From a virus (Duplodnaviria > Caudoviricetes): DNA of 58,296 nt. Below, one piece after another: positions 43,626 to 56,887 of this stretch (its first letter is position 1; the number at the start of each line of letters is the position of its first letter). Location: positions 1-58,296 of the IMG/VR virus record IMGVR_UViG_3300042889_002114. The stretch is one strand, 5' to 3'. The notes beneath the pieces were generated by a model. The model worked only from the letters and a program-made list of their open reading frames with translations, searched no databases and was not told where the DNA came from. The position numbers and the translations under genes are program-made.

Positions 43626-43926
43626 ATGGGGTGAACCCCGTGACATGTTGCTGGCTCCCAGAGACGGGAGGCAGATCATGTTGCTACTCAGTAATGGCTG
43701 GTTGGCACTGGCCCGCTATCCTCGCACTGAAACCGATAAGCCAGCAAGCGACCGCTATAATGTATGGTGGCAACTTACTGGCCAAGGCGATGTCATTGAT
43801 GCCTCGACATTCAAGGGACAGCCCACTGGATTATACCCAGTGGGCTGGTGGAATGTTCCTGATCAAGACTGGGCCTGGGAGACCGCCCAACGGCTTAGGC
43901 CTGAAGGATCATCTGGGCAACCTTAG
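43618..43926 (+). CDS. hypothetical protein (APRDG...P..W, DUF551-like)
   Basis: APRDG..I motif and YPVGWW; start uncertain. Confidence 0.5.
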   Translation: MLEWGEPRDMLLAPRDGRQIMLLLSNGWLALARYPRTETDKPASDRYNVWWQLTGQGDVIDASTFKGQPTGLYPVGWWNVPDQDWAWETAQRLRPEGSSGQP

Positions 43927-44398
43927 TGCCCGCTTCTTCGGCATCCATCGAGACATTGATTTCACCGCGGCTGTCTAGACCGGAAACGAAATCCAGCATG
44001 TCATCTTCACTATATAGCGCATCAATGCCCTCGTAGGACATCGCTACGTTGGCGACAGCCATCTGCCATTCGCGAGCATCAACGTTCTCGGCAACCGTTT
44101 CCATTTGACGGGGACGGGCCTTGAGGTGAACCTGGACCTGATACTCCGAACCATCTTGGAGATCGATGTTGATGTAGTTCATGCCGCTGCTACCATCGAC
44201 GTGGCCCACACGCGAGACATTGATATCGTTCTCGCCGTACTGATAGCCTTGTAGAAGTTCACGAATGGCCATGGTGACCTCTTCCGTGGTCAAGCCCTCA
44301 CCCTCGAATTCTTCGTCATCGCCGAATTCCAAGACTACTTGGTTGAAAGCATTCTCGAGAAGAGCTAGTGCTCTGTTAATCTTATCTGAATTGGCCAT
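43895..44398 (-). CDS. acidic late protein
   Basis: AGGAG RBS and TAAATA on the minus strand. Confidence 0.7.
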   Translation of the reverse strand: MANSDKINRALALLENAFNQVVLEFGDDEEFEGEGLTTEEVTMAIRELLQGYQYGENDINVSRVGHVDGSSGMNYINIDLQDGSEYQVQVHLKARPRQMETVAENVDAREWQMAVANVAMSYEGIDALYSEDDMLDFVSGLDSRGEINVSMDAEEAGTKVAQMILQA

Positions 44399-44465
44399 GG
44401 TGTCTCCTAGGGTTCAGGATATTTATCCAGAATAGGTAGAGTGGTAGATTTAGATAAATAGGAAC

Positions 44466-45053
44466 ATGAAACGAGTGTTCCTAAAAGACTTTGACTGGGT
44501 TGGGATTCAATCAGCATACGATTCAGGAATATCATGGCAAGGAATCATCGAGAAATTCAAGACGACTCCCACTAGCTTGAACAAAGCTGCGAAGCTTGGA
44601 TTGTTCAAAACTAGATCACAGAAGGAAGGTTCTGTGAGAGCGGCCGCCAGCCGTCCCAAACAAGTTCACACCGATGAATTCTGTCAGGCACAATCCCGTC
44701 GAGCCAAAGAACGTGGGTTGGGTGGTCAACGGAACAGTCACAAGATAGAATACAAGGGTGTGGTTTTAGATTCATCTTACGAGCTAGAGATGGCACAGAA
44801 TCTAGATGCTGCGGGTGTAAAATGGTCTCGCCCTGGCCGCTTCAAATGGATTGATGATTCGGGTGTGGATCACCATTATACGCCGGATTTCTACCTTCCC
44901 CATTATAATGTGTATCTCGATCCCAAACACAAGGGTTTGATTCCTCTCCACGCTAGGAAAATTGAATTGGTCCAGGAGCAGAATGACATAAGAGTTCTGG
45001 TTCTTACAAAAGAACAGTTGACGTGGGCTGCCGTACTCAGTTACGTTGGATAA
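44466..45053 (+). CDS. free-standing PD-(D/E)XK (TnsA_N-like) putative homing endonuclease
   Basis: SSYE...W.RP...YTPDFYLP...YLDPK; N-terminal HTH-like module. Confidence 0.8.
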   Translation: MKRVFLKDFDWVGIQSAYDSGISWQGIIEKFKTTPTSLNKAAKLGLFKTRSQKEGSVRAAASRPKQVHTDEFCQAQSRRAKERGLGGQRNSHKIEYKGVVLDSSYELEMAQNLDAAGVKWSRPGRFKWIDDSGVDHHYTPDFYLPHYNVYLDPKHKGLIPLHARKIELVQEQNDIRVLVLTKEQLTWAAVLSYVG

Positions 45054-45066
45054 ATAGGAACACACC

Positions 45067-45141
45067 GGGGACTTAGTGATAACGGTAGCACGCCAGATTT
45101 GCATTCTGGATGTAGGGGTTCGATTCCCCTAGTCTCCACCA
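45067..45141 (+). tRNA. tRNA-Ala(TGC)
   Basis: G3:U70; CCAGA-TTTGCAT-TCTGG; CCA. Confidence 0.92.
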
Positions 45142-45179
45142 ATACTGGATGTCATCGGTTCGAATCCGTTATTCTCCAC
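45142..45179 (+). pseudogene. 3' half remnant of a tRNA (Ala-like)
   Basis: CTGG-ATGTC-ATCGGTTCGAATCCG-TTATTCTCCAC with no 5' half attached. Confidence 0.7.
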
Positions 45180-45237
45180 TTAGGTTCCACGCCAAGAGAT
45201 GCGTCTCTTGGCCCACTCCTGCTTTCGGGCGGAGATA

Positions 45238-45267
45238 GATAGCCCGGCGTGGCCACGCCGGGCTATC
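45238..45267. terminator. perfect 30-bp palindrome
   Basis: GATAGCCCGGCGTGGCCACGCCGGGCTATC. Confidence 0.6.
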
Positions 45268-45501
45268 GCCATATAATGAGAGCCCTAGTGGTTTTCAAAG
45301 AATTCAGAAACATATTGCAACGCCACACACGGTAGTGCATTATGGATCAGTAGTCGGACGGAGACGCCCGGCGGACTTGGACGCAGAAAAGTTTCTGTAG
45401 AAAAGTTGAATTAAACGGTTGACGTATCATCCGTTTGGTATAAATAGAAATAACAGTCCAAGCCATTCCGGCGCGGACAACCTAAGGATTCGTAATCTAC
45501 T

Positions 45502-45681
45502 ATGTTCGACTCGTCCACCCTCTTTAGCAAAAAGCTCGCCGGTGCAAACCGTCGCGGCTGGTCGGCTGAGCGCGGCGGATGCGAACATAATGTGATTATG
45601 CCGTCCGCCTTGTATCAAAATCAGCCTACACAGCTGGTCAGCGATACAGGCACCCGGGGTTCTCCTGGAGGTTCTTGCTAA
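45502..45681 (+). CDS. candidate 59-aa leader peptide
   Basis: TATAAATA at 45439, AAGGA RBS; followed by a GC-rich hairpin. Confidence 0.45.
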   Translation: MFDSSTLFSKKLAGANRRGWSAERGGCEHNVIMPSALYQNQPTQLVSDTGTRGSPGGSC

Positions 45682-45717
45682 GAGGTAACTTTAAGCAAAA
45701 CACTTCTAGTAGTAAAC

Positions 45718-45749
45718 GCCCCGGGCACCGAAAGGTCCCGGGGCTTCTT
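45718..45749 (+). terminator. terminator-like hairpin (possible attenuator)
   Basis: GCCCCGGG-c-ACC-GAAA-GGT-CCCGGGGC-TTCTT. Confidence 0.6.
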
Positions 45750-45808
45750 GCATCTGGACCCGACGGTAACGGGGCAGAAAATAAAATGCGGAAAACTTAA
45801 AAAGTTAG

Positions 45809-45837
45809 TTGACAGTGTTTTAGAAGTATGCTAAAAT
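45809..45837 (+). promoter_or_regulatory. near-consensus sigma70 promoter for the tRNA array
   Basis: TTGACA-17nt-TAAAAT. Confidence 0.75.
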
Positions 45838-46098
45838 AGAATTCCGAAGGACTTAGGTCCCAAGGAGCAGTTGCTGGACTTAAACCAGCAGTGGTAAACG
45901 CGGAACGAGACTGCGGGATAGCCACTCAAAATAAACCCGAATGGGCGGTGCCGAGGATGAAACCCAGGTGATGGGGAGTAAAAATAGGTGGATGTATTGA
46001 ATCCACCGTGGGCAGTGAGAGGGAAACCTCTCGCAAGCGGATCCGTCTAAAGTGCTAGACAACATATTCCGCTTATCAATAAAAAAGGCCAAAGTTTT

Positions 46099-46176
46099 CA
46101 GCGTGTAGGGGAGTCTGGAGTCCCTGCCACCTCGGGAAGGTGGAGATCGCAGGTTCAAATCCTGCTACGCTGACCA
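46099..46176 (+). tRNA. tRNA-Pro(GGG)
   Basis: CCACC-TCGGGAA-GGTGG (C33); CCA. Confidence 0.88.
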
Positions 46177-46222
46177 AGATTTATATCCAGGCTGAGCGGC
46201 ACTCATAAGTCCTGGACGATAT

Positions 46223-46297
46223 GCTTCTGTAGCACAATGGCTAGTGCAACGAGCTGATAACTCGTAGATTCAGGTTCGATTCCTGGCAGAAGTACCA
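46223..46297 (+). tRNA. tRNA-Ile(GAT)
   Basis: ACGAG-CTGATAA-CTCGT; CCA. Confidence 0.93.
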
Positions 46298-46306
46298 ACA
46301 CAATAT

Positions 46307-46391
46307 GCGGTTGTGATGAAACTGGTAGACTTGCTGCACTCAGAATGCAGTGCCTTCGGGCGTGGTGGTTCGAATCCACTCAGCCGCACCA
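46307..46391 (+). tRNA. tRNA-Leu(CAG)
   Basis: CTGCA-CTCAGAA-TGCAG; variable arm; CCA. Confidence 0.93.
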
Positions 46392-46395
46392 ACAC

Positions 46396-46469
46396 GTGAT
46401 CATAGTTCAATTTCAGAGAACGCCGGCCCTGGGCTGGAAGTGCGGGGGAAGATCCCGCTGATTGCACCA
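46396..46469 (+). ncRNA. tRNA-like RNA with a truncated anticodon loop
   Basis: Acceptor GTGATCA/TGATTGC, ACCA end, 3-5 nt anticodon loop, atypical T loop. Confidence 0.6.
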
Positions 46470-46479
46470 ACTCTTTCAT

Positions 46480-46556
46480 TCCCATTGGTCCCTGTCGGTA
46501 GGGGAGCGACACTGTTAATGTCGATGTTGTAGGTTCGAGTCCTACATTGGGAGCCA
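46480..46556 (+). tRNA. tRNA-Asn(GTT)
   Basis: CGACA-CTGTTAA-TGTCG; GCCA. Confidence 0.9.
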
Positions 46557-46571
46557 ACATTCACCTTTTAT

Positions 46572-46647
46572 TCCTGTTTAGTCATCTTGGTGAGGGCGTC
46601 CGGCTGTTAACCGGAATAGGCTGGTTCGAACCCAGCAACAGGAGCCA
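46572..46647 (+). tRNA. tRNA-Asn(GTT)
   Basis: TCCGG-CTGTTAA-CCGGA; GCCA. Confidence 0.92.
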
Positions 46648-46654
46648 ACATTTA

Positions 46655-46690
46655 TGCGCGGTCGACAGGAGGTGGTTCCTGCCAGGTCTC
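46655..46690 (+). pseudogene. 5' half remnant of a tRNA (Met-like) ending in the anticodon loop
   Basis: TGCGCGG...GGTGGT...CAGGT-CTC followed by CGCTAAATA. Confidence 0.65.
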
Positions 46691-46704
46691 CGCTAAATAC
46701 TGGT

Positions 46705-47259
46705 ATGCGATATACCATTTACAAAATCACGAATTTGCTCAACGGTAAGTTCTATATCGGGAAGCACCAAACCTCTAATCCACTTGATGGATATTTTGGT
46801 TCGGGGCGGGCACTGAAGAGTGCCATCAAGCTTCACGGTAAAGAGAACTTCACCAAAGAGATACTCTTCGAGTTTGACTCAGAAGAGGAAATGAATGCCA
46901 AGGAGCGCGATCTCATTACCCTAGAGTTGGTTAATGATCCAGCATCCTATAACATGGCAGTTGGTGGTGAAGGTGGTCCTCACTTCAAAGGGCGACAACA
47001 TTCATCGGAAACCAAAGAACGAATTAGCCAGAGCTTAACAGGAAAGCAAGCCGCCTCGGTGTCCGAAGAGACCCGAGCAAAGCTTTCGGAGAAGAGCAAG
47101 GGTAACAAAAGTAAAACTGGTCAACAGACCTCGGAAGAGGTTAAGGCTAAGATAGCCAAGTCAATGACCGGTAAGAAACACAGTGAAGAAACCAAACAGA
47201 AGCTGCGAGAAGCTCGTTTGAGAACACTGGACAAGTCGCGGGTAGGACAAGACAGTTAG
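46705..47259 (+). CDS. GIY-YIG homing endonuclease (Seg-like, NUMOD3 repeats)
   Basis: TIYKITN..NGKFYIG...YFGSG...YN...GG; HS.ETK repeats; probable start at 46705. Confidence 0.9.
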   Translation: MRYTIYKITNLLNGKFYIGKHQTSNPLDGYFGSGRALKSAIKLHGKENFTKEILFEFDSEEEMNAKERDLITLELVNDPASYNMAVGGEGGPHFKGRQHSSETKERISQSLTGKQAASVSEETRAKLSEKSKGNKSKTGQQTSEEVKAKIAKSMTGKKHSEETKQKLREARLRTLDKSRVGQDS

Positions 47260-47314
47260 TCGCCAGCCTCATAAGCTGGATATCTGGTAGTTGCGAGCAC
47301 TACACCCGCTCCCA
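47237..47314 (+). tRNA. tRNA-Met(CAT), overlapping the endonuclease stop
   Basis: CCAGC-CTCATAA-GCTGG; 1:72 mismatch; atypical T loop; CCA. Confidence 0.82.
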
Positions 47315-47344
47315 TTCCAAGCTGGAGATGACAACCAGCTTTAT

Positions 47345-47419
47345 ACCACTGTACGCATCTGGTGAGGCGACTCCCCTGTCACGGGAATGAGGCGGGTTCG
47401 ATTCCCGTCAGTGGTGCCA
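47345..47419 (+). tRNA. tRNA-Asp(GTC)
   Basis: TCCC-CTGTCAC-GGGA; GCCA. Confidence 0.88.
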
Positions 47420-47427
47420 ACTTCTCT

Positions 47428-47504
47428 GCCCGTATCGTTCTTCTGGAGAGGTCACCTGCTCGACACGCAGGGTTAGGTGAGTTCGATTCTCACTGCGGGC
47501 ACCA
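47428..47504 (+). tRNA. tRNA-Val(GAC)
   Basis: CCTGC-TCGACAC-GCAGG (C33); ACCA. Confidence 0.85.
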
Positions 47505-47517
47505 ACAAGTCATTCAT

Positions 47518-47591
47518 GGCTCGCGCGATGGAGTCGCGGCTGATCCTTACAAGATCGGCGTCACAGGGTTCGATTCCCTGACGGGCTACCA
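47518..47591 (+). tRNA. tRNA-Val(TAC)
   Basis: TGATC-CTTACAA-GATCG; ACCA. Confidence 0.85.
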
Positions 47592-47597
47592 AATACT

Positions 47598-47672
47598 GGA
47601 CTGGGGTCCCCATGGTGGGGAAGCACACTCTTAATGTGCCCGTCGAGGGTTCGATCCCCTCCTAGTCCTCCA
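47598..47672 (+). tRNA. tRNA-Lys(CTT)
   Basis: GCACA-CTCTTAA-TGTGC; CCA. Confidence 0.87.
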
Positions 47673-47679
47673 ACATCAC

Positions 47680-47756
47680 GGACCTGTAGCACAATTGGTA
47701 GTTGCGGGGGCCTCTTAAGCCCTAGGTTGTCGGTTCGACCCCGACCAGGTTCACCA
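47680..47756 (+). tRNA. tRNA-Lys(CTT)
   Basis: GGGGC-CTCTTAA-GCCCT; ACCA. Confidence 0.9.
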
Positions 47757-47782
47757 AAGACCTAGCTCTGCTAGGCACTAAC

Positions 47783-47865
47783 GGGAAGGTAAAGCCGATG
47801 GTTTCGGCAGGCAGTCTGTAAAACTGCTCTTTCGGGGAGTGGATCGTAACCGCACCTTCCCACCA
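47783..47865 (+). tRNA. tRNA-Tyr(GTA)
   Basis: GCAGT-CTGTAAA-ACTGC; variable arm; ATCGTAA T loop. Confidence 0.85.
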
Positions 47866-47869
47866 ATAT

Positions 47870-47952
47870 GCACCAGTAACCGAGAGTCATATGGGTATGG
47901 CGGGAGGCTTTTAATCTCCTGGTAGGGGGATCGTAACCTCACTGGTGTGCCA
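47870..47952 (+). tRNA. tRNA-Lys(TTT), atypical D and T arms
   Basis: GGAGG-CTTTTAA-TCTCC; GCCA. Confidence 0.75.
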
Positions 47953-47964
47953 ATAAAATCAAAT

Positions 47965-48035
47965 GGCTAGGGTACTGGGTACGCGAGACTCTCATAAGGT
48001 CTTGTTGCCGGGATCGTAACCCGGACTAGCCTCCA
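47965..48035 (+). tRNA. tRNA with CAT anticodon (Met or Ile2)
   Basis: AGACT-CTCATAA-GGTCT; short D arm; CCA. Confidence 0.75.
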
Positions 48036-48039
48036 ACAT

Positions 48040-48116
48040 GCCCGCGTGACGTAACTGGTAAACGTGTCACGCTTAGACCGTGAATTCTGGAGGTTCGAAT
48101 CCTCTCGCGGGCACCA
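48040..48116 (+). tRNA. tRNA-Leu(TAG), short variable arm
   Basis: TCACG-CTTAGAC-CGTGA; ACCA. Confidence 0.88.
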
Positions 48117-48123
48117 AAGCTGA

Positions 48124-48156
48124 TGGAGATTAGTGTAGCTGGTAACATACCGCACT
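48124..48156 (+). pseudogene. 5' half remnant of tRNA-Gln ending at U33
   Basis: TGGAGATTAGTGTAGCTGGTAACATACCGCACT; closely resembles the 5' half of the tRNA at 48773. Confidence 0.85.
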
Positions 48157-48165
48157 AAATACAGT

Positions 48166-48768
48166 ATGATCATACAGCTCAAAAACAAATCATTGGTCCT
48201 TGAAGACCTGCAGAAATACTATGATGAAGGTCATAGTGTTGCGGCAACTGCCAAAGAGTTTGGTATTTCAAGTAGAACATTGATGAGGTTAAAAGCTAGT
48301 CACGGGTTTGTAACCAGGGACAAGTCAGCTGCATTGGTAGTATCCAATGCAAAGTATCCTAGAACCTTCAGCGAAGCTCAACGTGGTGTGCTTAGAACTC
48401 ACATGGAACGTCGGCTTGCTAATGGAACATATCCAACTCTTGGTAGGTCAAATCGGAAGATCGGGAAGCCATCATATCCGGAGACCTTCTTCAAGGAAGT
48501 GATCGAAAACGAGTTTACAGACAAACGCTACGAGGCGGAACATCCATTTGGATCCTTCTCCTTAGATTTTGCCTGGTTGCACTTGAAGAAGTGCATTGAG
48601 ATTGACGGTGAACAACATTTTGCTTCGCAAGAAGCGATTGATCGTGACTGTCGAAAAGATGCTTTCCTCGCCACAAACGGCTGGAAAGTATTTAGAATAC
48701 GGTGGAAGGATTTCTACAAAGATCCAAAGCCGCTCATCCTTCTTGTGAAGCAATTCATAGAAGAATGA
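48166..48768 (+). CDS. DUF559/Vsr-like putative homing endonuclease
   Basis: SYPE...FSLDFA...IEIDGEQH...D..KD.FL...GWKVFRI; N-terminal HTH-like module. Confidence 0.85.
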   Translation: MIIQLKNKSLVLEDLQKYYDEGHSVAATAKEFGISSRTLMRLKASHGFVTRDKSAALVVSNAKYPRTFSEAQRGVLRTHMERRLANGTYPTLGRSNRKIGKPSYPETFFKEVIENEFTDKRYEAEHPFGSFSLDFAWLHLKKCIEIDGEQHFASQEAIDRDCRKDAFLATNGWKVFRIRWKDFYKDPKPLILLVKQFIEE

Positions 48769-48772
48769 TTAT

Positions 48773-48847
48773 TGGAGATTGGTGTAAACGGTAACATCGA
48801 CGCCTCTGAAGCGTTTGTCCTAGGTTCGAACCCTAGATCTCCAGCCA
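48773..48847 (+). tRNA. tRNA-Gln(CTG)
   Basis: GACGC-CTCTGAA-GCGTT; U1:A72; GCCA. Confidence 0.93.
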
Positions 48848-48860
48848 ACTAGTCATTCAT

Positions 48861-48934
48861 TGGGGAATGGTGTAAAGGTAGCATAACTGACTTTGAATCA
48901 GTTGGATCACGTTCGATACGTGGTTCCCCAGCCA
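48861..48934 (+). tRNA. tRNA-Gln(TTG)
   Basis: ACTGA-CTTTGAA-TCAGT; GCCA. Confidence 0.92.
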
Positions 48935-49013
48935 ATAGGCCTTAGAGGATTTAGGGGATTAGGCACCCCACACCGGGATCACGAAAGTGACCGCATCTAC
49001 GGTTCCTCACTAT

Positions 49014-49085
49014 GCTGTTGTGGGGTGGCTCTCACGCTTGGTTGTGTCCCAGGTGGTTTCGGTTCGACTCCGAACAACAGTACCA
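49014..49085 (+). tRNA. tRNA-His(GTG), no G-1, G1:U72, A73
   Basis: CTTGG-TTGTGTC-CCAGG; short D arm; ACCA. Confidence 0.75.
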
Positions 49086-49092
49086 ATATCAT

Positions 49093-49125
49093 GCGTCTAT
49101 AGCTCAATGGTAGAGCCACTGCCTT
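49093..49125 (+). pseudogene. 5' half remnant of tRNA-Gly
   Basis: GCGTCTATAGCTCAATGGTAGAGCCACTGCCTT. Confidence 0.85.
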
Positions 49126-49142
49126 GGTCAACTAAATAGAGT

Positions 49143-49712
49143 ATGATCAAGAAGATATTTAATTGGCCCGAGATCCAAGCTTTTTACGATACTGGTAACA
49201 GTAGCGGAAAAACTGCCAAGCAATTTGGAATGTCAGGTAAAACTTTGTTCCTCGCGGCAAAACGTGGTGATTTTGTTACTCGATCCAGAAGTGAGGCGGC
49301 GACGGTTGGTTCAACAACCCGTCCACCTCATTCTCAGGTCACCAAAGACAAGTTGAGTAAGATTGCTTCCGACAGAGAATTTGGTGGCAAGAACTACCGT
49401 AAAACTTTCCCCTACAAGGGCGTTGTGTTGGAGAGCTCATACGAGCTTGCACTTGCACAAGAACTTGATGGTGAGGGTATTGCTTGGGTGCGTCCCAAGC
49501 GTTTCTACTGGACTGATGACACTGGTAGGCGTAGACACTACACACCAGACTTCTTCCTTCCAGACTACGGGATTTATCTAGATCCCAAAAACGACTACCT
49601 GATCAAGATAGATAGTGATAAGATCAACCGAGTGATGTTACAAAATGACATACGGGTGTTGGTGTTGTCTAAGAGTCAACTGTCCTGGTCATACATTGCA
49701 TCTGTAGTATAG
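49143..49712 (+). CDS. free-standing PD-(D/E)XK (TnsA_N-like) putative homing endonuclease
   Basis: ESSYE...WVRP...YTPDFFLP...YLDPKN; paralogue of the ORF at 44466. Confidence 0.82.
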   Translation: MIKKIFNWPEIQAFYDTGNSSGKTAKQFGMSGKTLFLAAKRGDFVTRSRSEAATVGSTTRPPHSQVTKDKLSKIASDREFGGKNYRKTFPYKGVVLESSYELALAQELDGEGIAWVRPKRFYWTDDTGRRRHYTPDFFLPDYGIYLDPKNDYLIKIDSDKINRVMLQNDIRVLVLSKSQLSWSYIASVV

Positions 49713-49772
49713 TGGCTATTATGTTTGGCTTCCAACCAGAAGATGTGGGTTCGATTCCCACCAGATGCTCCA
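49698..49772 (+). tRNA. tRNA-Gly(TCC), overlapping the endonuclease stop
   Basis: TTTGG-CTTCCAA-CCAGA; TCCA. Confidence 0.92.
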
Positions 49773-49812
49773 AGGAATGGCTAGCAGGGTTCGATCCTCT
49801 CTAGACGCTCCA
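49773..49812 (+). pseudogene. 3' half remnant of tRNA-Gly
   Basis: T loop GGTTCGATCC; TAGACGC-TCCA complementary to GCGTCTA at 49093. Confidence 0.85.
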
Positions 49813-49819
49813 ACTTTAT

Positions 49820-49895
49820 CCTGGCAAAGTCTTTGCGGTGGAGGCGCTGGTTTGTGGAGCCGGATGGCTAGGTTCGAATCCTAGTGCCAGGACCA
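49820..49895 (+). tRNA. tRNA-His(GTG), A73
   Basis: CTGGT-TTGTGGA-GCCGG; ACCA. Confidence 0.85.
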
Positions 49896-49902
49896 AGTTT
49901 AT

Positions 49903-49976
49903 GCGAATATAGCTCAAGGGTAGAGCAGAGCGTTGCCAACGCTCCGATAGGGGTTCGAATCCCCTTATTCGCTCCA
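49903..49976 (+). tRNA. tRNA-Gly(GCC)
   Basis: GAGCG-TTGCCAA-CGCTC; TCCA. Confidence 0.93.
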
Positions 49977-49983
49977 ACACAAT

Positions 49984-50059
49984 GCGGCATTAGTATATTG
50001 GTTGATTGCATCACCTTGCCATGGTGAGAAGATGGGTTCGATTCCCATATGCCGCTCCA
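49984..50059 (+). tRNA. tRNA-Gly(GCC)
   Basis: TCACC-TTGCCAT-GGTGA; TCCA. Confidence 0.9.
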
Positions 50060-50221
50060 AAGACGTTGTACGAAGCAGGGCTGCAAACCCTGAGCGAGAG
50101 GCCTTTAATGCGCGGGACAGTCTATCCCGAGAACTGTGAACAGCTTCACGGCGGGGGCCAAGAACCCCTAGTAGCATAGGAGAGGCGGAGTGGGGTGTGG
50201 ATACCCATTGCAAAGGAATAT

Positions 50222-50297
50222 GTGTAGTTGGTGAAGCTGGAGCTCACATTGGCTTGAAACCCCAAAGAACTAGGTTCGATCCCTAGACTACACACCA
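50222..50297 (+). tRNA. tRNA-Phe(GAA)
   Basis: TTGGC-TTGAAAC-CCCAA (one mismatch); ACCA. Confidence 0.82.
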
Positions 50298-50506
50298 AGT
50301 TCTCCTAGGAGGACGGAGCCTACTTACGCCCTAGGCTCGTAAAATATGGAGACGTTCTGCACTGTGGAGCGTTGGGACCTCGCAGCGCCGGGCGGCCAGT
50401 TCGTAAGGAACAAGTAGCTCATTACCTGGAAGGGGCAGGTTACCGATTATAATGGTTGCGCGTTTCTAGTTGGCAACATAGAGTGCTTTTTTAACAGGAG
50501 CACCAC

Positions 50507-50827
50507 ATGAACCAGCAACAAGGTTTTCTCGCGCACGCCGACGGCACGATTGCCGGACTGAAGTCCCAGCAAGTTGCGATCGAATATCGCAAGACGATCT
50601 GCCCCAAGGACCAAGTCGAGATCCTCGACCTGGACGTGGCGCGCCTGCAACGCGAGATTGACCGGCTGGTCATCATCCGCACTGACGTTGAGTCCAAGCT
50701 GAGCAAGGAAGAGATCGCCCAGTATGAAGCGTCGCGGGTCAAGCCCAAGACGGAACTCGAGAAGCGCGCCGAGATTGAAGAAATGAATCGGCGCATGAAC
50801 GAGAACAAGGACCGGCCGGGGATCTAA
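50507..50827 (+). CDS. hypothetical coiled-coil protein inside the tRNA array
   Basis: AGGAG RBS; 106 aa. Confidence 0.7.
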   Translation: MNQQQGFLAHADGTIAGLKSQQVAIEYRKTICPKDQVEILDLDVARLQREIDRLVIIRTDVESKLSKEEIAQYEASRVKPKTELEKRAEIEEMNRRMNENKDRPGI

Positions 50828-50839
50828 TCCCCTGCCTAT

Positions 50840-50962
50840 GTGAAGGTAGTGTGAGGACGTGCTAGGATGCAGGGGACCGGAAAACTCTGCAGGGGATCAC
50901 GGACGGGATAACACAACGGGGAGGACCCGGAGATGTTGGTTCAAATCCAACCCTTTACACCA
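50840..50962 (+). ncRNA. tRNA-scaffolded GGA-rich RNA
   Basis: Acceptor GTGAAGG/CCTTTAC (G3:U70), canonical T arm and ACCA, enclosing ~85 nt with ten GGA triplets. Confidence 0.7.
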
Positions 50963-50969
50963 ACTACAT

Positions 50970-51071
50970 CGAGAGGTAGTTTAAGGACGCGACGGGGTCG
51001 ACACCAAGCGGACTGGTAAAATGGGCGTGTGAGAACGTCAGATGTAGGCTCGAAACCTTCCCTCTCGGCCA
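50970..51071 (+). ncRNA. tRNA-like RNA with an expanded D loop
   Basis: Acceptor CGAGAGG/CCTCTCG-GCCA; ~25-nt D-loop insert; 6-nt anticodon loop. Confidence 0.6.
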
Positions 51072-51072
51072 T

Positions 51073-51148
51073 GTACCTGTAGCTCAGTTGGTAGAGCAAC
51101 GCACTGAAAATGCGTGTGTCGGTGGTTCGAGTCCACCTAGGTGCACCA
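51073..51148 (+). tRNA. tRNA-Phe(GAA)
   Basis: ACGCA-CTGAAAA-TGCGT; ACCA. Confidence 0.94.
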
Positions 51149-51271
51149 ATACCAAAATCCACCCTTTGAGGTGGCACCCAGGGTGGGTGGTTAACGTGAA
51201 GCGGGGTTCGATGCCCTAAACGATCGGGTTCGACTCCCCTTCGTGCTTGGCTGCAATATCGTTAATGAAAC

Positions 51272-51347
51272 GGGGTATGCTCTGGGTTAAGCGGATTAGT
51301 TTTGCAAACTGATTGTCTGAAGGGTTCGATTCCCTTATATTCCACCA
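51272..51347 (+). tRNA. tRNA-Ala(TGC)
   Basis: G3:U70; TTAGT-TTTGCAA-ACTGA; atypical D arm. Confidence 0.8.
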
Positions 51348-51410
51348 ACGAGCCGAAGACAATGGGTTATCTTTTGCTGATAAACACCCACCGTCATTTA
51401 CTTGCTCGTT
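51347..51410 (+). ncRNA. minimal Y RNA (Ro60-binding stem only)
   Basis: AACGAGC-CGA...GGGTTAT...ACTT-GCTCGTT. Confidence 0.7.
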
Positions 51411-51415
51411 ACCAT

Positions 51416-51490
51416 GGCGCATTAGTTCACTGGCTAGAATACCGCTCTTTCACAGCGGGGAAACGAGATCGATACTCGTATGCGTCACCA
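51416..51490 (+). tRNA. tRNA-Glu(TTC)
   Basis: CCGCT-CTTTCAC-AGCGG; ACCA. Confidence 0.9.
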
Positions 51491-51494
51491 ACAT

Positions 51495-51568
51495 GCTTCT
51501 GCCGGCGGATTCCGGCATTTGGACTTCTAATCCGAAATGCGAGGGTTCGACTCCTTCCAGAAGCGCCA
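51495..51568 (+). tRNA. tRNA-Arg(TCT)
   Basis: TTGGA-CTTCTAA-TCCGA; GCCA. Confidence 0.87.
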
Positions 51569-51606
51569 AGCATTTCATATGCCTCTGATGATGGATTTCA
51601 TACCCC

Positions 51607-51679
51607 GACCTTGCCAACGGATTTTGGCCCCGACGCTTCGAACGTCAGGTATCGAGTTCGACTCTCGACAGGGTCTCCA
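51607..51679 (+). tRNA. tRNA-Arg(TCG)
   Basis: GACG-CTTCGAA-CGTC; TCCA. Confidence 0.82.
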
Positions 51680-51687
51680 ACCATATT

Positions 51688-51759
51688 GTCTCCGCTAGTG
51701 GATCTAGTCTGTTCCCTGCGAAGGAAGAGAAGCCTGTTCGACTCAGGCCGGAGACGCCA
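51688..51759 (+). tRNA. tRNA-Arg(GCG)
   Basis: TTCC-CTGCGAA-GGAA; GCCA. Confidence 0.8.
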
Positions 51760-51766
51760 ATTAAAT

Positions 51767-51840
51767 ACCCGCGCCGAGGGATTGCGGCACAGGCCCTGCG
51801 AAGGCTTGATGTTCAGGTTCGACTCCTGACGTGGGTGCCA
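51767..51840 (+). tRNA. tRNA-Arg(GCG), overlapping the antisense endonuclease stop
   Basis: AGGCC-CTGCGAA-GGCTT; GCCA. Confidence 0.85.
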
Positions 51841-52448
51841 ACTGCATCAAAGATTTCTTGAGGAGTACCGTAGATTAGGTCAACTGATCCTACGAGTGCA
51901 TCAAGTTTCTCTTGTTGTTTTTCAACTACGATCCTGTTCTTAGGATCAAGGTAGAGATTGAATTCTGGTAGATAGAAATCTGCAAAGTATTTGTGTGGTT
52001 TGCCTTTTTGGTCATACCAAACGATTGCATCAGTGGGTCGAAGCCAACTTATGGAATGCTCATTGAGCCACTTAGCAACAATGACTTCCCATCCTGAATC
52101 AAACATCTCTCCCTCGTATTCTTGTTTCTTGACACCTGATGCGTTCTTACGCTTTGACGAAATAAAGCATTGGTCAGAACATAGAAGACCATACCATCCA
52201 CTGTCAGTTCGTTGACTCCAGAATTGATTAGAGCAAAACGAACAGTTGGATCGTTTTATTTTGGTGTGTTGATACTTGGTGGGTTGTTTCCGAATAAAGG
52301 ATCTACCCTTCAAAGATTCAGAAGTTTTTGATTTGCTACTAATGGTTCTAGGTGCTCTGTTTGTATTATTGAATACAGCGGCGCATGAACAAGAACAGAA
52401 TTTGTTCTTGTTGGGAATTGGTTTGGCACAAGTGATACAGTATTTCAT
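51813..52448 (-). CDS. PD-(D/E)XK putative homing endonuclease with N-terminal zinc-finger motifs
   Basis: CxxC...FCS..C twice; DSGWE...WLRP...YFADFYLP...YLDPKN; TAAATA on the minus strand before ATG. Confidence 0.82.
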   Translation of the reverse strand: MKYCITCAKPIPNKNKFCSCSCAAVFNNTNRAPRTISSKSKTSESLKGRSFIRKQPTKYQHTKIKRSNCSFCSNQFWSQRTDSGWYGLLCSDQCFISSKRKNASGVKKQEYEGEMFDSGWEVIVAKWLNEHSISWLRPTDAIVWYDQKGKPHKYFADFYLPEFNLYLDPKNRIVVEKQQEKLDALVGSVDLIYGTPQEIFDAVGTHVRSRT

Positions 52449-52458
52449 GTTGTATTTA

Positions 52459-52498
52459 GCGAAACCGAAAATCTAGGTTCGATCCCTAGTGGAACCGC
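52459..52498 (+). pseudogene. 3' half remnant of tRNA-Arg(GCG) starting at the anticodon
   Basis: GCG-AA-ACCGA-AAAT-CTAGGTTCGATCCCTAG-TGGAAC. Confidence 0.8.
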
Positions 52499-52748
52499 TT
52501 AATCGGAGACACCCACAGGCCCTAGGGCTCGTGACGTGAGCTTGGCGCTAGAGGGCTTACCGCGTGTAGCGGATGAGTCCGGAGTGGGAGTGTGGAAACC
52601 CACCGATTGAAGATACTCCTTGTAAATGACCCTTCCTAGTCCGGTTGCAAACGGACGACGTGGGAGGCAGTTTAGATGAGCGGACTTGCGGCGTTTGGAG
52701 CCGAGGTAGTCTAGGAGCCGGGTGAGGAAACCGGCCTTGGAGCATAAT

Positions 52749-52823
52749 GGGCTGTTAGTGATAACGGTAGCACGGGACAATGGCATTGTCTTAGCAGGGG
52801 TTCGATTCCCCTACAGTCCACCA
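52749..52823 (+). tRNA. tRNA-Ala(GGC)
   Basis: G3:U70; GGACA-ATGGCAT-TGTCT; ACCA. Confidence 0.92.
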
Positions 52824-52836
52824 ACTGATATTCTTT

Positions 52837-52910
52837 GGCCCATTAGTTTAATGGTAGAATACCGCCCTCTCACGGCGTCAGCAGGGGTTCGATTCCCCTA
52901 TGGGTCACCA
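52837..52910 (+). tRNA. tRNA-Glu(CTC)
   Basis: CGCC-CTCTCAC-GGCG; ACCA. Confidence 0.9.
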
Positions 52911-53020
52911 ACTACTACCTCACGGAGGTGGTGCTTTAGAGACGCTCCCGCTTTGTTTGGAGCCAGGGAAACCTGTGGCGGTCTCGGAGGGGAATGTGGA
53001 CCTCCCCAGTAGTTGAATAT

Positions 53021-53096
53021 GGCGCATTAGTTTATAGGGTGAAAATACTGGGCTTTCAATCCGGAGTGGTGGGTTCGATCCCCACATGCGTCGCCA
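53021..53096 (+). tRNA. tRNA-Glu(TTC)
   Basis: CTGGG-CTTTCAA-TCCGG; GCCA. Confidence 0.9.
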
Positions 53097-53189
53097 AACT
53101 TGTTGACACTCTGGAGACAGGGTGTTACATTGATTCTACCAACTAGTCCCTCCCTGTAGCTGTTTCTAGCAACAGAAGGAGATAAGACG

Positions 53190-53450
53190 ATGAAGGTATA
53201 TGTGGTTCTGCACAATAACTGGCAACACTACGAAGGTGGTGGAGCGGAGATTGTTTCGATTCATGCTTCCACGAACTGAGCGTTGGCGGAAGTCAAAGCT
53301 CAGTTCGTGGAACTGAATAAAAATCGCTACTCGTATCAACCCGAGTATGTGATGGTGGATCGTGAAAACGAGTCCGATTGTTGGTACTACCAGGAAACTG
53401 GTGGGGCTGACTATTGGTACTCCATCGAGGAACACAAGATTGAGGACTAG
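53190..53450 (+). pseudogene. small phage protein gene with an in-frame TGA at codon 30
   Basis: TTGACA promoter, AAGGAG RBS; MKVYVV...IVSIHASTN*ALAEVK...YSIEEHKIED. Confidence 0.65.
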
Positions 53451-53653
53451 GAAACTGGTCCTCCGATCTAATACTCTGGTATGCAGTAACCAAAGCATAC
53501 TCCCGCCACACGGGAAACGTGGCCCTGCATGACTCCGGCAATCGGTAGTGGAGGAATTTCATCCCCTTGATGCAAAGGGGGTCGGCACGGGTATGATGGC
53601 ACTCTACGTTAGTGAGCCCATTAGTCGGGTGGGGATGGTACCCCACCCGCTTT

Positions 53654-53731
53654 TCCTAGCTAGTCATCTTGGTGATGGCGCTCCGCTGTTAACGGAGATT
53701 GAGCTCAGTTCGAATCTGAGGCTAGGAGCCA
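53654..53731 (+). tRNA. tRNA-Asn(GTT)
   Basis: CTCCG-CTGTTAA-CGGAG; GCCA. Confidence 0.92.
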
Positions 53732-53773
53732 ATAATATAGACGCCATCGAAGCAGTAATGCTTTACTCTGGAA

Positions 53774-54196
53774 ATGAACTTTCGAGGCGTCAAGGATTCA
53801 ACCTTTGTTTGTGGGTTTTGTGAGAAGTCTTTCTCTTGGAGAGGCTACTCCACCTCCCACAAGTTTTGTTCTACAGACTGTGCTCACTCTAACAGGGTGA
53901 AGATGACTAGAGAACGAGACGACGCGCTCTTCGATACTGGCCAGTTAACAAGTCGGCCATCAATCTACCAAATACTTGTTACCCGTCGTGGTAACAAGTG
54001 TGAGAGTTGTAATATTCAAGACTGGATGGGCAAAGCAATCCGATTTTGGGTCGACCACATTGATGGGTGTGCAACCAATAATGATCCATCAAACTTGAGA
54101 TTGGTCTGTCCCAACTGTGATAGTCAATCTGCCACATTCGGTGGTAAAAATAGAGGTAGTGGCCGTAAGTCCCTAGGGCTTGCGCCATACAGTTAA
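53774..54196 (+). CDS. HNH homing endonuclease
   Basis: CxxC..., CESC...VDHIDG...NN...NLRLVCPNC. Confidence 0.85.
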   Translation: MNFRGVKDSTFVCGFCEKSFSWRGYSTSHKFCSTDCAHSNRVKMTRERDDALFDTGQLTSRPSIYQILVTRRGNKCESCNIQDWMGKAIRFWVDHIDGCATNNDPSNLRLVCPNCDSQSATFGGKNRGSGRKSLGLAPYS

Positions 54197-54201
54197 ACAA
54201 T

Positions 54202-54277
54202 CCCCTCGGACCCAGCTGGTGACGGGAGCCGCTTGTCAGGCGGATGCGGGCGAGTTCAATTCTCGTCGAGGGGGCCA
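54202..54277 (+). tRNA. tRNA-Asp(GTC)
   Basis: CCGC-TTGTCAG-GCGG; GCCA. Confidence 0.87.
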
Positions 54278-54403
54278 ACTTAGAGCCGATTGATTCGGGT
54301 TATCTTTCTGTGAAAAAGCGATGGAGGGTTCGATTCCCTTGCCGGGGCTCACGCCTTGGTCCTTGGATGGCTGGCAACGTCCGGTTCTCCACTTGCTCTA
54401 AGT
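54278..54403 (+). ncRNA. Y RNA (YrlA-like) with a permuted tRNA-like domain
   Basis: ACTTAGAGC-CGA..GGGTTAT..T arm GAGGGTTCGATTCCCTT..CCACTT-GCTCTAAGT. Confidence 0.78.
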
Positions 54404-54407
54404 CTTT

Positions 54408-54488
54408 AGTTCTGTAGCTCAGTGGCCAGAGCATTCCTGTGTATCGCTACGCTGGGAAGGGCCAGAGGTTCGAATCCTCTCAGAACTG
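54408..54488 (+). ncRNA. tRNA-like RNA with an elongated anticodon arm
   Basis: Canonical acceptor, D and T arms; anticodon arm TTCCTGTGTA-TCGC-TACGCTGGGAA; no CCA. Confidence 0.7.
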
Positions 54489-54490
54489 CT

Positions 54491-54635
54491 AAACGGGCCG
54501 ATTTGTAAGGGTTATTGCATATGAAGCCGATGGCGGGAGTTCGATTCTCCCACCCCCGACCAACACGTTAGACCTCCGGGGGTTAGTTTAATGGTAGAAC
54601 AGCGAAAAACGTCCTTGCTACCACTTGCCCGTTTT
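54491..54635 (+). ncRNA. Y RNA (YrlA-like) with a permuted tRNA-like domain
   Basis: AAACGGGC-CGA..GGGTTAT..T arm, loop-closed acceptor ACCCCCG/CGGGGGT, D arm, then CCACTT-GCCCGTTT. Confidence 0.85.
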
Positions 54636-54638
54636 ATT

Positions 54639-54728
54639 GGATAGTAGACCAGGTGGGACCTGGCGGCGCCTGGAAAGCGTCTGGAGCCCTTTACCGGGCT
54701 TGTGGATCGAGACCACTGCTGTCCGCCA
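54639..54728 (+). tRNA. tRNA-Ser(GGA)
   Basis: GGCGC-CTGGAAA-GCGTC; long variable arm; GCCA. Confidence 0.88.
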
Positions 54729-54734
54729 ACTCAT

Positions 54735-54825
54735 GGAGAGTTAAGCAGAGCGGCCTCTGCACCTGCCTCGAAAACAGTGTGTGCCCGTAGAACGGCATGG
54801 GAATCGACATCTCAGCTCTCCGCCA
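54735..54825 (+). tRNA. tRNA-Ser(CGA)
   Basis: CTCGAAA loop with an imperfect stem; long variable arm; GCCA. Confidence 0.78.
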
Positions 54826-54831
54826 ATAAAT

Positions 54832-54936
54832 GGGCCAGAACCCTGTGGACTTAGATCCACTTACCGTGAAAGTCGGTGGAGGTATGGAGACGGGAGTAGC
54901 TCTCCCATGCGGGTTCAAATCCCCACTGGTCCACTA
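54832..54936 (+). ncRNA. atypical tRNA-like RNA
   Basis: Acceptor GGGCCAG/CTGGTCC, T loop TTCAAAT, three internal hairpins, no standard anticodon loop. Confidence 0.55.
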
Positions 54937-54942
54937 AACCTT

Positions 54943-55029
54943 GGATGGTTAAACGGGGAGGTCCCCGTACCTGTTTGCTAAACAGTGGGTGCCGAAAGGC
55001 ATGGGTTTCGAGTACTCAGCCATCCGCCA
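54943..55029 (+). tRNA. tRNA-Ser(GCT)
   Basis: CTGT-TTGCTAA-ACAG; long variable arm; GCCA. Confidence 0.85.
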
Positions 55030-55139
55030 ACGTACGAGCCGACCGAGAACGAAACCATCGTCCGGAACCTCGGTCTAATCCCGGTCAACCCTAGCAAGCT
55101 ACTAGGGCGAAGGGGGTGCTCGTACGCCCAATACATCAT

Positions 55140-55213
55140 CAGGGTGTAAGATAGTGGTAGTCGCGAACCCTCGGACGGTGCGAGTGCTGGTTCGATTCCA
55201 GCTACCCTGACCA
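55140..55213 (+). tRNA. tRNA-Pro(CGG)
   Basis: CTCGGAC loop; C1:G72; ACCA. Confidence 0.85.
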
Positions 55214-55240
55214 CTGACTAAGTATCGAACTAAATAGAGT

Positions 55241-55897
55241 ATGTTCTACTTGGTCTATAAAATCACCAACACGGTGAATGGTAAAATCTACATCGGCGCC
55301 CATAAGACTGCTGATGTAAATGACAACTATATGGGATCTGGTTCCATCTTGAAGATGGCCCAAGAGAAATATGGCACGTCAAACTTCACCAAAGAGATTC
55401 TGTTTGTCTTCAGCTCACCAGAAGAGATGTTCCTTATGGAAGCTCAACTGGTCAATGAAGACTTTGTATCTAGAGCAGATACCTACAACCTAAAAGAGGG
55501 TGGTACCGGTGGCTTTGGCTTCATTCACCAACACAATCTACACCTTAATGGGGTTCCCAACTTCACAAAGGACAATGCCAAGGCGTTAAGCATCAAAGGT
55601 AACGGGAGGAAGGAAATCCTCCATGCTACTGATCCAGAGTGGAGGCAGAGATACTTGGACAGAATGTCCAAGTCCATGCGCGGCCATCAAGGTTTCCTGG
55701 GTAAGACCCATAGTGCTGAGACACTAGAAAAGATGCGGCAGGCTAAAACTGCTCATGGTTTAGGAAAGAACAATTCGCAATTCGGCTCCTTCTGGATCTA
55801 TAATGAGACTACTGGAGAATCCTGTAAAACCAAGGGTGATATCCCGGAAGGTTGGATTCGTGGTCGAAAGATAGGAACCCGAAGAAATGATCTTTGA
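55241..55897 (+). CDS. GIY-YIG homing endonuclease (Seg-like)
   Basis: LVYKITNTVNGKIYIG...YMGSG...YNLKEGG; NUMOD3-like GKTHSAET. Confidence 0.9.
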   Translation: MFYLVYKITNTVNGKIYIGAHKTADVNDNYMGSGSILKMAQEKYGTSNFTKEILFVFSSPEEMFLMEAQLVNEDFVSRADTYNLKEGGTGGFGFIHQHNLHLNGVPNFTKDNAKALSIKGNGRKEILHATDPEWRQRYLDRMSKSMRGHQGFLGKTHSAETLEKMRQAKTAHGLGKNNSQFGSFWIYNETTGESCKTKGDIPEGWIRGRKIGTRRNDL

Positions 55898-56147
55898 AAA
55901 AGTTGAAGTCACAGAACATCAGTTTAGCACAATCAAAAATGACTATGATTTGAAAATCATGTTCAGAAGTGGTGGATGGCCATCAGATGATGAACAATAT
56001 CTTGGCATGATTGAGCTCAGACTAGATTGTGGCAATAGCCTACTCACCGATTCAGTCAATGACTGCCTTAGATTGACTAAAGAAGATGCCATCCTTCAAC
56101 TTCGAAGGGCAGCTGATTTTCTAGAATCAGAACTAAACGGGGAGTGA
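55887..56147 (+). CDS. hypothetical protein
   Basis: 86-aa ORF overlapping the endonuclease stop. Confidence 0.55.
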   Translation: MIFEKVEVTEHQFSTIKNDYDLKIMFRSGGWPSDDEQYLGMIELRLDCGNSLLTDSVNDCLRLTKEDAILQLRRAADFLESELNGE

Positions 56148-56157
56148 TCCCCACAAT

Positions 56158-56232: not shown

Positions 56233-56282
56233 ATATAATCAGCTCATCGGGGTAGGATCAGCTGGGTAAGACAACCTATCAT

Positions 56283-56880: not shown

Positions 56881-56887
56881 ACTCAAT

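Follow-up and report, generated by a model that had tools for sequence, protein, structure and literature searches.

A candidate ribosome-read attenuator, with a leader peptide containing all twenty amino acids, at the head of a giant-phage tRNA array

The DNA examined here is a 58,296-nucleotide stretch of a Caudoviricetes genome (IMG/VR virus record IMGVR_UViG_3300042889_002114, positions 1 to 58,296), referred to below as the window. It carries a compact leader unit, consisting of a promoter, a short open reading frame (ORF) and a terminator, at the head of a long array of tRNA genes. ARAGORN identifies 39 tRNA genes in the window, 34 of which form the array that begins at 46099 and runs off the window end. 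The unit is bracketed by a tRNA-Ala(UGC) gene upstream (45067–45141) and by tRNA-Pro(GGG), the first gene of the array (46099–46176). The source record has a completeness rating of 12%, which implies a genome of several hundred kilobases, and the metagenomes that match the window derive mostly from lakes and other freshwater. The unit belongs to a freshwater phage of roughly 0.4–0.5 Mb. In a complete related genome of 436 kb (G002), 50 tRNA genes covering all 20 amino acids lie within 20 kb downstream of the unit, and tRNA-Ala is the only tRNA gene in the 10 kb upstream.

All features of the unit lie on the plus strand. A putative promoter, P1, can be read from TTGACG (45419–45424) and TATAAATA (45439–45446), with a spacer of 14 nt to TATAAA or 16 nt to TAAATA; a consensus promoter scan missed it because of this spacing. 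The first domain of the predicted minimum free energy (MFE) structure is a 5′-terminal hairpin (H1, 45456–45478). A Shine-Dalgarno (SD)-like AAGGA (45484–45488) then precedes by 13 nt the ATG of a 59-codon ORF (45502–45681) that includes all 20 amino acids. According to the MFE prediction, the SD, the AUG and codons 1–35 are held in a long hairpin (H2, 45486–45606), and another hairpin (H3, 45607–45651) lies immediately 5′ of a segment we call region 2 (CCCGGGGT, 45653–45660). The stop codon (45679–45681) and a GGAGG motif fall within a further MFE domain (H4, 45665–45709). The unit closes with an intrinsic-terminator hairpin, GCCCCGGGCACC-GAAA-GGTCCCGGGGC (45718–45744), whose stem covaries among relatives, and a weak U-rich tail (TTCTTGCATC) that extends the feature to 45754. 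Region 2 is complementary to GCCCCGGG of the terminator 5′ arm (region 3), with which it can form 8 base pairs including one G-U.

Between the terminator and the array lie a second promoter, P2 (TTGACA-17-TAAAAT, 45809–45837), recognized by the consensus scan with 11 of 12 matches and a TG present, and a conserved structured leader, element 2 (45844–46098, folding z = −3.84), that extends up to tRNA-Pro. A previous sequence-only reading of this DNA had proposed a leader-peptide attenuator from the promoter, the AAGGA, the ORF, the terminator hairpin with its weak U tract, the complementary segment near the ORF end and a separate sigma70 promoter at 45809, and every one of these features is present where it had been placed. 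The enclosure of the SD and AUG within H2, a second, upstream partner for region 2 and the stop-codon hairpin are additions to that description.

Relatives were sought in IMG/VR, JGI metagenomes, a 5.8-billion protein index and cultured phages. Scans of IMG/VR and the JGI metagenomes with the ORF peptide yielded no confirmed relative, the neighbouring protein encoded at 43895–44398 likewise had none in IMG/VR, and blastn of the window region and of the unit from locus L017 against cultured phages gave no match. The protein index held two relatives of the ORF, with 88% and 71% identity. DNA patterns derived from the core of element 2 recovered loci L002, L005, L007, L009, L014 and L015, and a peptide pattern contributed two more, L018 and L017, the latter a 436-kb contig that bears terminal repeats and is rated complete. 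L002 is identical to L003 and L006 (417-kb contig), and L005 and L009 are near variants of L002. Six other pattern matches (L004, L008, L010, L011, L012 and L013) were set aside, as by eye they lack the rest of the conserved core and the tRNA neighbour. The unit is also present in further JGI metagenome contigs. It occurs once per record in all five IMG/VR relatives and in the window’s own record.

All nine aligned loci share a common order: tRNA-Ala(UGC), P1, the 5′ hairpin, an SD, an ORF of 59–65 codons, the terminator, P2 and element 2. The tRNA-Ala gene was located upstream in L002, L007, L014, L015, L017 and L018, and tRNA-Pro(GGG) is the first gene past element 2 wherever the contig extends that far (L002, L014, L015, L017 and L018; L007 stops inside element 2). 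P1 is kept in the form TTGAC[AG]-N14-[TC]ATAA[AG]T, and P2 in the form TTGACA-17-TA[AG][AG][AC]T, in nine of nine loci. A 6–7-bp hairpin of different sequence occupies the position of H1 in every locus, the architecture of H2 likewise recurs with different sequence, and relatives carry purine-rich equivalents of the SD roughly 10–13 nt 5′ of the start. The GC stem of the terminator with its GAAA loop is universal among the nine, and the relatives have better U tracts than the window. Distances are preserved across lineages: 145–163 nt from the AUG to region 2, 19–29 nt from region 2 to the stop codon and 27–36 nt from the stop codon to region 3. The joint retention of ORF length, stop position and alternative pairing upstream of tRNA arrays, which the sequence-only reading had put forward as a check on its proposal, is therefore a property of these related giant phages. 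We also observed that a hairpin containing the stop codon is predicted in all lineages and that each carries within it a GGAGG-type purine motif a few codons 5′ of the stop; in the window a TTG-started frame of 41 codons (45675–45800) begins just past this motif.

An analogous unit is found in a cultured phage. Sinorhizobium phage Phosso (469 kb) encodes a protein with 35% identity to one window protein, and this gene lies ∼7 kb 5′ of the Phosso tRNA array, the same spacing as in the window. Just upstream of the first tRNA of the array are a promoter-like TTGACA...TATAAATA similar in form to P1, an AAGGA roughly 8 nt from the start, a GTG-started 54-codon ORF annotated as hypothetical, a terminator with a GC stem and a GAAA loop, two TTGACG promoter-like sites and a leader of roughly 250 nt. 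The Phosso ORF has no detectable protein homology to the leader family (hhalign E = 0.14); the family hidden Markov model (HMM) gave only a weak match on this genome, inside a 398-amino-acid frame, and blastn of the Phosso unit against cultured phages matched Phosso alone. Since Phosso is grown on Sinorhizobium meliloti, the ideas discussed below are testable at the bench.

The leader ORF is, judged by how it has diverged, a coding sequence, and we infer that it is translated. Among six lineages, all 15 pairwise differences in ORF length are multiples of three, and in more distant pairs the third codon positions vary most (for example 11, 11 and 22). Ratios of nonsynonymous to synonymous substitution (dN/dS) range from 0.16 to 0.69, and ORF sequences from different clades are near saturation, with proportions of synonymous differences (pS) of 0.69–0.82. 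Five lineages were recovered with a DNA pattern from beyond the ORF, and each of them retains the reading frame, the start codon and an SD. Non-conservation of the ORF had been named as grounds for abandoning the attenuator proposal; instead it is conserved, and with coding signatures.

Besides the relatives P0002, P0003 and P0023, the ORF belongs to a family of small proteins. A HMMER profile search of 1.84 billion representatives matched 21 proteins, at least 14 of which are small; these members, of 52–64 amino acids, align over their full length. Long matches in multiple stretches (P0009, P0014, P0016 and P0018–P0022, 251–1651 amino acids) appear repeat-like or of low complexity. Columns of F, W, P and G are conserved across 18 family members. 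Pfam gave no match to the ORF, and a search of the ESM Atlas with the leader peptide returned no look-alike. AlphaFold2 modelled the peptide without secondary structure, at a mean predicted local distance difference test score (pLDDT) of 53.8.

Some other identities for the unit were considered and set aside. A noncoding RNA with a chance ORF was rejected on account of the in-frame indels and the protein family. A transfer-messenger RNA (tmRNA), suggested by the upstream tRNA-Ala, was rejected because the tRNA-Ala(UGC) is normal according to ARAGORN, which detects no tmRNA in the window, and because the unit has its own promoter. As for a hok-like type I toxin, the peptides, by reading of their sequences, are rich in G, A, S and T and contain no hydrophobic stretch; an antisense RNA was not searched for.

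The composition of the leader peptide is the strongest signal among those examined. The counts of all 20 amino acids and 40 distinct codons in 59, as originally given, are correct; among 5000 random 59-codon windows from the long ORFs of this phage, only 4.1% reach the full set of 20 amino acids, and 40 or more codons occur in 2.3%. Given the peptide, however, codon usage predicts 38.9 ± 2.2 codons (P = 0.41), so the unusual property is diversity of amino acids and not of synonymous codons. Extra synonymous diversity was accordingly rejected, and codon diversity contributes nothing once the amino acids are accounted for.

All 20 amino acids are also found, within 53–84 residues, in 16 of 18 aligned family members, and in all nine ORFs derived from DNA. 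The remaining two members, P0005 and P0015, have 19 each; both are gene calls that begin at an internal Met and lack the N terminus. From the composition of the family, 3–10% of sequences would be expected to include all 20, and a random open frame would do so in 5.6% of cases. When residues are shuffled inside alignment columns, 20.9 ± 3.0 sequence-by-residue absences result, and shuffling within clades gives 13.9 ± 2.3, compared with two observed, a value reached in none of 5000 shuffles; these nulls take no account of phylogeny, and gappy columns such as those of Tyr inflate them, which speaks against taking them at face value as support for a sensor. For this reason relocations of scarce residues were examined as well. 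Cys occupies column 29 in 10 of the 14 members of the larger clade, none of which has another Cys, and three of the four members without it carry Cys elsewhere (columns 22, 42 and 46), a contrast with a Fisher probability of 0.011 by hand arithmetic. When scarce residues are pooled, those lost from their usual place are present elsewhere in 21 of 23 cases, compared to 83 of 131 when the usual place is kept (p = 0.005), with the Tyr rows being partly an alignment effect.

The second conserved property is the alternative pairing of the terminator arm. Regions 2 and 3 can form 8–9 bp in seven of seven lineages and in Phosso, making this pairing and the terminator hairpin mutually exclusive, and region 2 is the best partner for the arm in the whole upstream transcript in all seven, or in eight of eight when Phosso is counted. 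Compared to 1000 shuffles the pairing is marginal in the window (P = 0.045) and stronger in the other lineages (P ≤ 0.003). In Phosso the equivalent of region 2 (CCGGGUCGG) forms 9 bp with the terminator arm, a value that 0 of 1000 shuffles reach, and the two are paired also in the nascent fold. The CCGGGG core of region 2 is invariant in nine of nine loci even though the residues it encodes differ (TRG, AGV, AGA and TGA). Flanking pairs do vary: at offset −1 they are CG, GC, GU and AU plus one mismatch, and at offset +6 UG, UA and CG. Moreover, the lengths of the C/G runs in regions 2, 3 and 4 shift together in three clades (CCCGGGG, CCGGGG and CCGGGU), with the window having one extra C-G in all three regions and Phosso having one G-C fewer in each than the other clades.

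The transcript from promoter to terminator is strongly folded relative to shuffles in nine of nine loci (z = −6.05 to −8.54; −6.86 by tool for the window) and in Phosso (z = −6.43). Despite strongly different sequences in the window and the other loci, a five-helix layout is shared: the 5′ hairpin, a ∼120-nt hairpin in which codons farther along the ORF pair with the SD and AUG, a helix involving region 2, the stop-codon hairpin and the terminator. RNAalifold predicts 48 consensus pairs, 13 of which have compensatory changes. The upstream partner of region 2 differs by group. In the larger (MLHLGTHM) clade the counterpart of H3 joins it to an ORF segment, region 1, which consists of the ITRPV codons; the window instead uses the 5′ untranslated region beside the SD, the 3′ half of region 2 pairing with 45479–45483 in the full-length MFE structure; and in Phosso it is the SD/start region. 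When nascent RNA is folded up to the terminator loop, regions 2 and 3 pair in seven of seven lineages unless a modelled ribosome covers region 2. A comparison of 44000–58296 and four related loci with Rfam at E ≤ 1 revealed no leader, T-box, riboswitch or other family. Fragments that align at the terminators fall far below gathering scores (Rev39 5′UTR at the hairpin, 19.6 versus 88 bits; Spot 42, 23–30.5 versus 80 bits).

We propose, with a probability of about 0.45, that the unit is a transcription attenuator read by a ribosome at the head of the tRNA array, where it senses general decoding capacity. The anatomy, its conservation, the coding ORF, its content of all 20 amino acids and its place before a tRNA set for all 20 fit this interpretation. 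Under this proposal P1 would start a transcript of roughly 300 nt, and a ribosome would have to load on the nascent RNA, because the SD and AUG are later buried in the long hairpin. This burial would limit initiation to nascent RNA and thus to one pioneer ribosome, which would translate the 59–65-codon leader with its complete set of amino acids. Region 2, with its CCGGGG core 19–29 nt before the stop codon, would be able to pair with the terminator arm 27–36 nt beyond it. A pioneer ribosome that stays in step with RNA polymerase would cover region 2, or sit between regions 2 and 3, so that the terminator forms and a short RNA is released. If decoding of any amino acid were slow, the ribosome would lag, regions 2 and 3 would pair, and polymerase would continue past P2 and element 2 to transcribe the tRNA genes, on top of what P2 itself supplies.

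The fullest form of this idea is a universal sensor, in which one pioneer ribosome has to read codons for each of the 20 amino acids and a shortfall of any charged tRNA flips the antiterminator and raises transcription of the complete set of ∼50 tRNAs of the phage, and we advance it only tentatively. A similarly tentative component of it is that selection may maintain the 20-amino-acid content, with scarce residues re-created elsewhere when lost from their usual positions. Starvation, host shut-off or tRNA-cleaving defences could serve as the physiological trigger, and the anticodon nucleases named in the sequence-only reading might conceivably be among them.

Several observations weigh against the attenuator. 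One is P2, since every lineage has a near-consensus promoter that separates its terminator from the tRNAs. Its conservation implies that the array has its own drive, independent of readthrough. The original proposal of a leader-peptide attenuator is partly supported, in that its ORF, geometry and pairing are conserved in front of tRNA arrays. The U tract of the window is weak, the MFE structures of all nine loci place both the SD and the AUG in paired regions, and the window SD lies as far as 13 nt from its ATG. In addition, the full-length fold contains the terminator at every modelled ribosome position in six of seven lineages and at all but four positions in L014, so that any switch must be kinetic.

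The leader itself also presents difficulties. It has no run of any codon and no enrichment of a regulating codon. Many members have Asp only in ‘LDT’, two codons 5′ of region 2, or after region 2, and because of this location a ribosome stalled at Asp would cover region 2. The Phosso ORF has only 19 of the 20 amino acids, lacking Cys; that this reflects the absence of tRNA-Cys from the phage is ruled out, as Phosso has two tRNA-Cys genes, located outside the dense block. Some purifying selection acts on the peptide, which may consequently have a function of its own, and a low-depth DNA contig (run X3, depth 5.6) has six single-base gaps in the ORF that leave its net length unchanged but may break the frame. 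Formal covariation in the 2:3 pairing is thin, given that six of the eight pairs, those of the core, never vary. The eight MAFFT-aligned columns have 96.4% of cells paired (slid registers give 61–68% or lower), and both bases change in only one pair. Among 500 shuffles, 75 equal the observed percentage paired and 209 the observed covariation.

Other explanations do not invoke attenuation. That the unit is a stand-alone gene for a protein of 59–65 amino acids, for example a host-takeover factor or one that binds RNA polymerase or the ribosome, seems to us unlikely but deserves to be taken seriously. The hairpins would then stabilize the mRNA or limit its translation, the terminator would simply end the gene, and the 2:3 complementarity would be a by-product of similar GC helices. 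In its favour are a promoter and terminator belonging to the gene, a separate P2 after it, a single copy, dN/dS values of 0.16–0.69 and F, W, P and G columns conserved across 18 members. Yet the product has no predicted fold and no Pfam or Atlas relative, and a small protein gives no explanation for the full amino-acid set that 16 of 18 members retain, with relocation of Cys, for a CCGGGG that is invariant while the residues it encodes change, or for the joint shifts in run length of regions 2, 3 and 4. A lower likelihood attaches to a structured RNA in which the fold is selected and translation is secondary or serves only to remodel the RNA; the terminator would release it as a small RNA, or it would have a dual function as attenuator-derived sRNAs do. 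The z scores of all nine loci and of Phosso, a five-helix layout that persists through different sequences, compensatory changes in 13 of 48 consensus pairs and a defined promoter-to-terminator unit of ∼300 nt favour this explanation. Against it are the in-frame indels and third-position excess and the retention of frame, start and SD in five lineages found through a pattern outside the ORF; it also has no Rfam family and offers no reason for the all-20 composition.

The different upstream partners of region 2 raise another explanation, in which region 2 alternates between the terminator arm and either the initiation region (window and Phosso) or region 1 (the other clade), such that the finished terminator locks or unlocks the ribosome-binding site of the leader for a one-shot control of translation. 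The MFE pairing of window region 2 with 45479–45483 beside the SD, the corresponding pairing in the SD/start region of Phosso and the sequestration of the SD and AUG in all nine loci are in keeping with a translational switch, but region 2 of the larger clade pairs with an internal ORF segment instead of the initiation region, and such a switch would not require 20 amino acids or a position at the head of a tRNA array. We regard it as improbable. Finally, a spurious ORF with a chance complement beside an ordinary terminator might be entertained for the window alone, where the pairing is marginal (P = 0.045) and 40 codons are ordinary for the peptide. Conservation of the ORF, geometry and pairing across clades that are near saturation (pS 0.69–0.82), and in Phosso, already contradicts this account and makes it very improbable indeed. 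The small protein, structured RNA and translational switch each cover part of the anatomy, and none accounts for the amino-acid content.

Element 2, downstream of P2, is a conserved structure in its own right. Its 38-nt core is identical in the window and L002, and among the window, L002, L014, L015, L017 and L018 compensatory changes occur in 21 of 52 consensus pairs. It matches no Rfam family, and it may represent a new class of RNA that is released from the tRNA precursor. Expression of the region was assessed from assembled contigs only. An ice metatranscriptome contains a 725-nt contig of a relative that spans 45362–46086 (identity buckets 90–95% and under 90%) and has a replaced stretch at 45527–45605. 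This contig could be readthrough RNA or DNA carry-over; an RNA-library contig carries no transcript-end or strand information, and uncovered stretches are uninformative.

Additional observations were made around the unit. Upstream, an ORF of 195 amino acids (44466–45053) is without a Pfam match, and 45143–45190, right after tRNA-Ala, resembles the T arm and acceptor that make up the 3′ half of tRNA-Ala in the relatives. This region has the look of a tRNA gene that a mobile endonuclease has rearranged; a GIY-YIG/NUMOD3 endonuclease is encoded at 46654–47259. By eye, and in relatives only (L002, L007, L014, L015, L017 and L018), a kept stretch, GAAGCGAGGTT..ACCCGG.GGGTCGGG, lies ∼40–110 nt 5′ of tRNA-Ala. 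A promoter-like TTGACA-17-TACATT within 53103–53649 is followed by a strong SD, then by ORFs 53190–53279 and 53283–53450, which share a frame with one TGA between them, and by a GC hairpin and U tail (53626–53649) just 5′ of tRNA-Asn. This segment was considered as a second promoter/terminator unit and rejected, as it contains an ordinary-looking small gene instead; the two frames are either a broken gene or the product of a read-through or recoded TGA.

Other tRNA genes of these phages have unusual features. The window encodes at 17062–17139 a tRNA with a four-base anticodon (ggaa) to which ARAGORN assigns no amino acid. Amber-reading tRNAs with a CUA anticodon, labelled Pyl, are present in G002 (L034, 7758–7833) and in Phosso (446731–446806 and ∼171983), which hints at amber suppression or recoding in this group. 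Sub-threshold matches to YrlA, a Y RNA-like family, occur inside the tRNA arrays (window 54508–54634 and 51014–51124; L017 2693–2825), with 23–31 bits versus a gathering score of 69. Farther upstream in the window, an ORF of 3381 amino acids (6344–16489) with a terminal Peptidase_S74 (endosialidase chaperone) domain probably encodes a giant tail fibre.

The unit has its closest parallels in the attenuators of amino-acid operons (trp, his, leu, thr, ilvGMEDA and pheA), whose leader peptides have 14–32 codons. Like them it has a promoter-proximal short ORF, an intrinsic terminator and a segment that pairs either upstream or with the terminator 5′ arm, and as proposed its outcome would be set by the position of the ribosome. 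However, its leader has 59–65 codons, all 20 amino acids and no run of a regulatory codon, its downstream genes are tRNAs instead of biosynthetic enzymes, a strong promoter separates its terminator from the target genes, and it matches no Rfam leader. Attenuation of pyrBI and pyrE in enterobacteria senses how closely the leading ribosome trails polymerase, the variable being polymerase speed as set by uridine triphosphate (UTP). The unit as proposed would likewise sense the distance between ribosome and polymerase and not one codon, but the variable would be the speed of the ribosome over all amino acids. T-box riboswitches need no translation, since they contact a single tRNA themselves, and their targets are aminoacyl-tRNA synthetase or amino-acid genes. 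They resemble the unit as proposed in that the charging status of tRNA sets terminator readthrough, and none was matched in the Rfam comparison described above. The attenuator rnTrpL/peTrpL of Sinorhizobium meliloti is reported to have a released RNA and a leader peptide that may act separately (PMC6614838, PMC7968998). It offers a precedent for a conserved peptide and a conserved RNA in one attenuator, differing as a 14-amino-acid Trp leader of a cellular trp operon to which no sequence relation is expected. In the portions of full-text literature at hand, no account links phage tRNA arrays, megaphages or ‘all 20 amino acids’ to attenuators or to leader peptides.

The tRNA arrays of phages are usually discussed as aids to codon usage or as substitutes for host tRNAs lost to degradation or to cleavage by defence nucleases. 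We know of little about how the expression of these arrays is controlled, and to our knowledge attenuation is established only for single or few amino acids. If the proposal is true, the unit would give the virus feedback control over its private translation supply and would represent a generalist form of attenuation, and selection to include every amino acid at least once would add a novel type of constraint to those that act on coding sequences.

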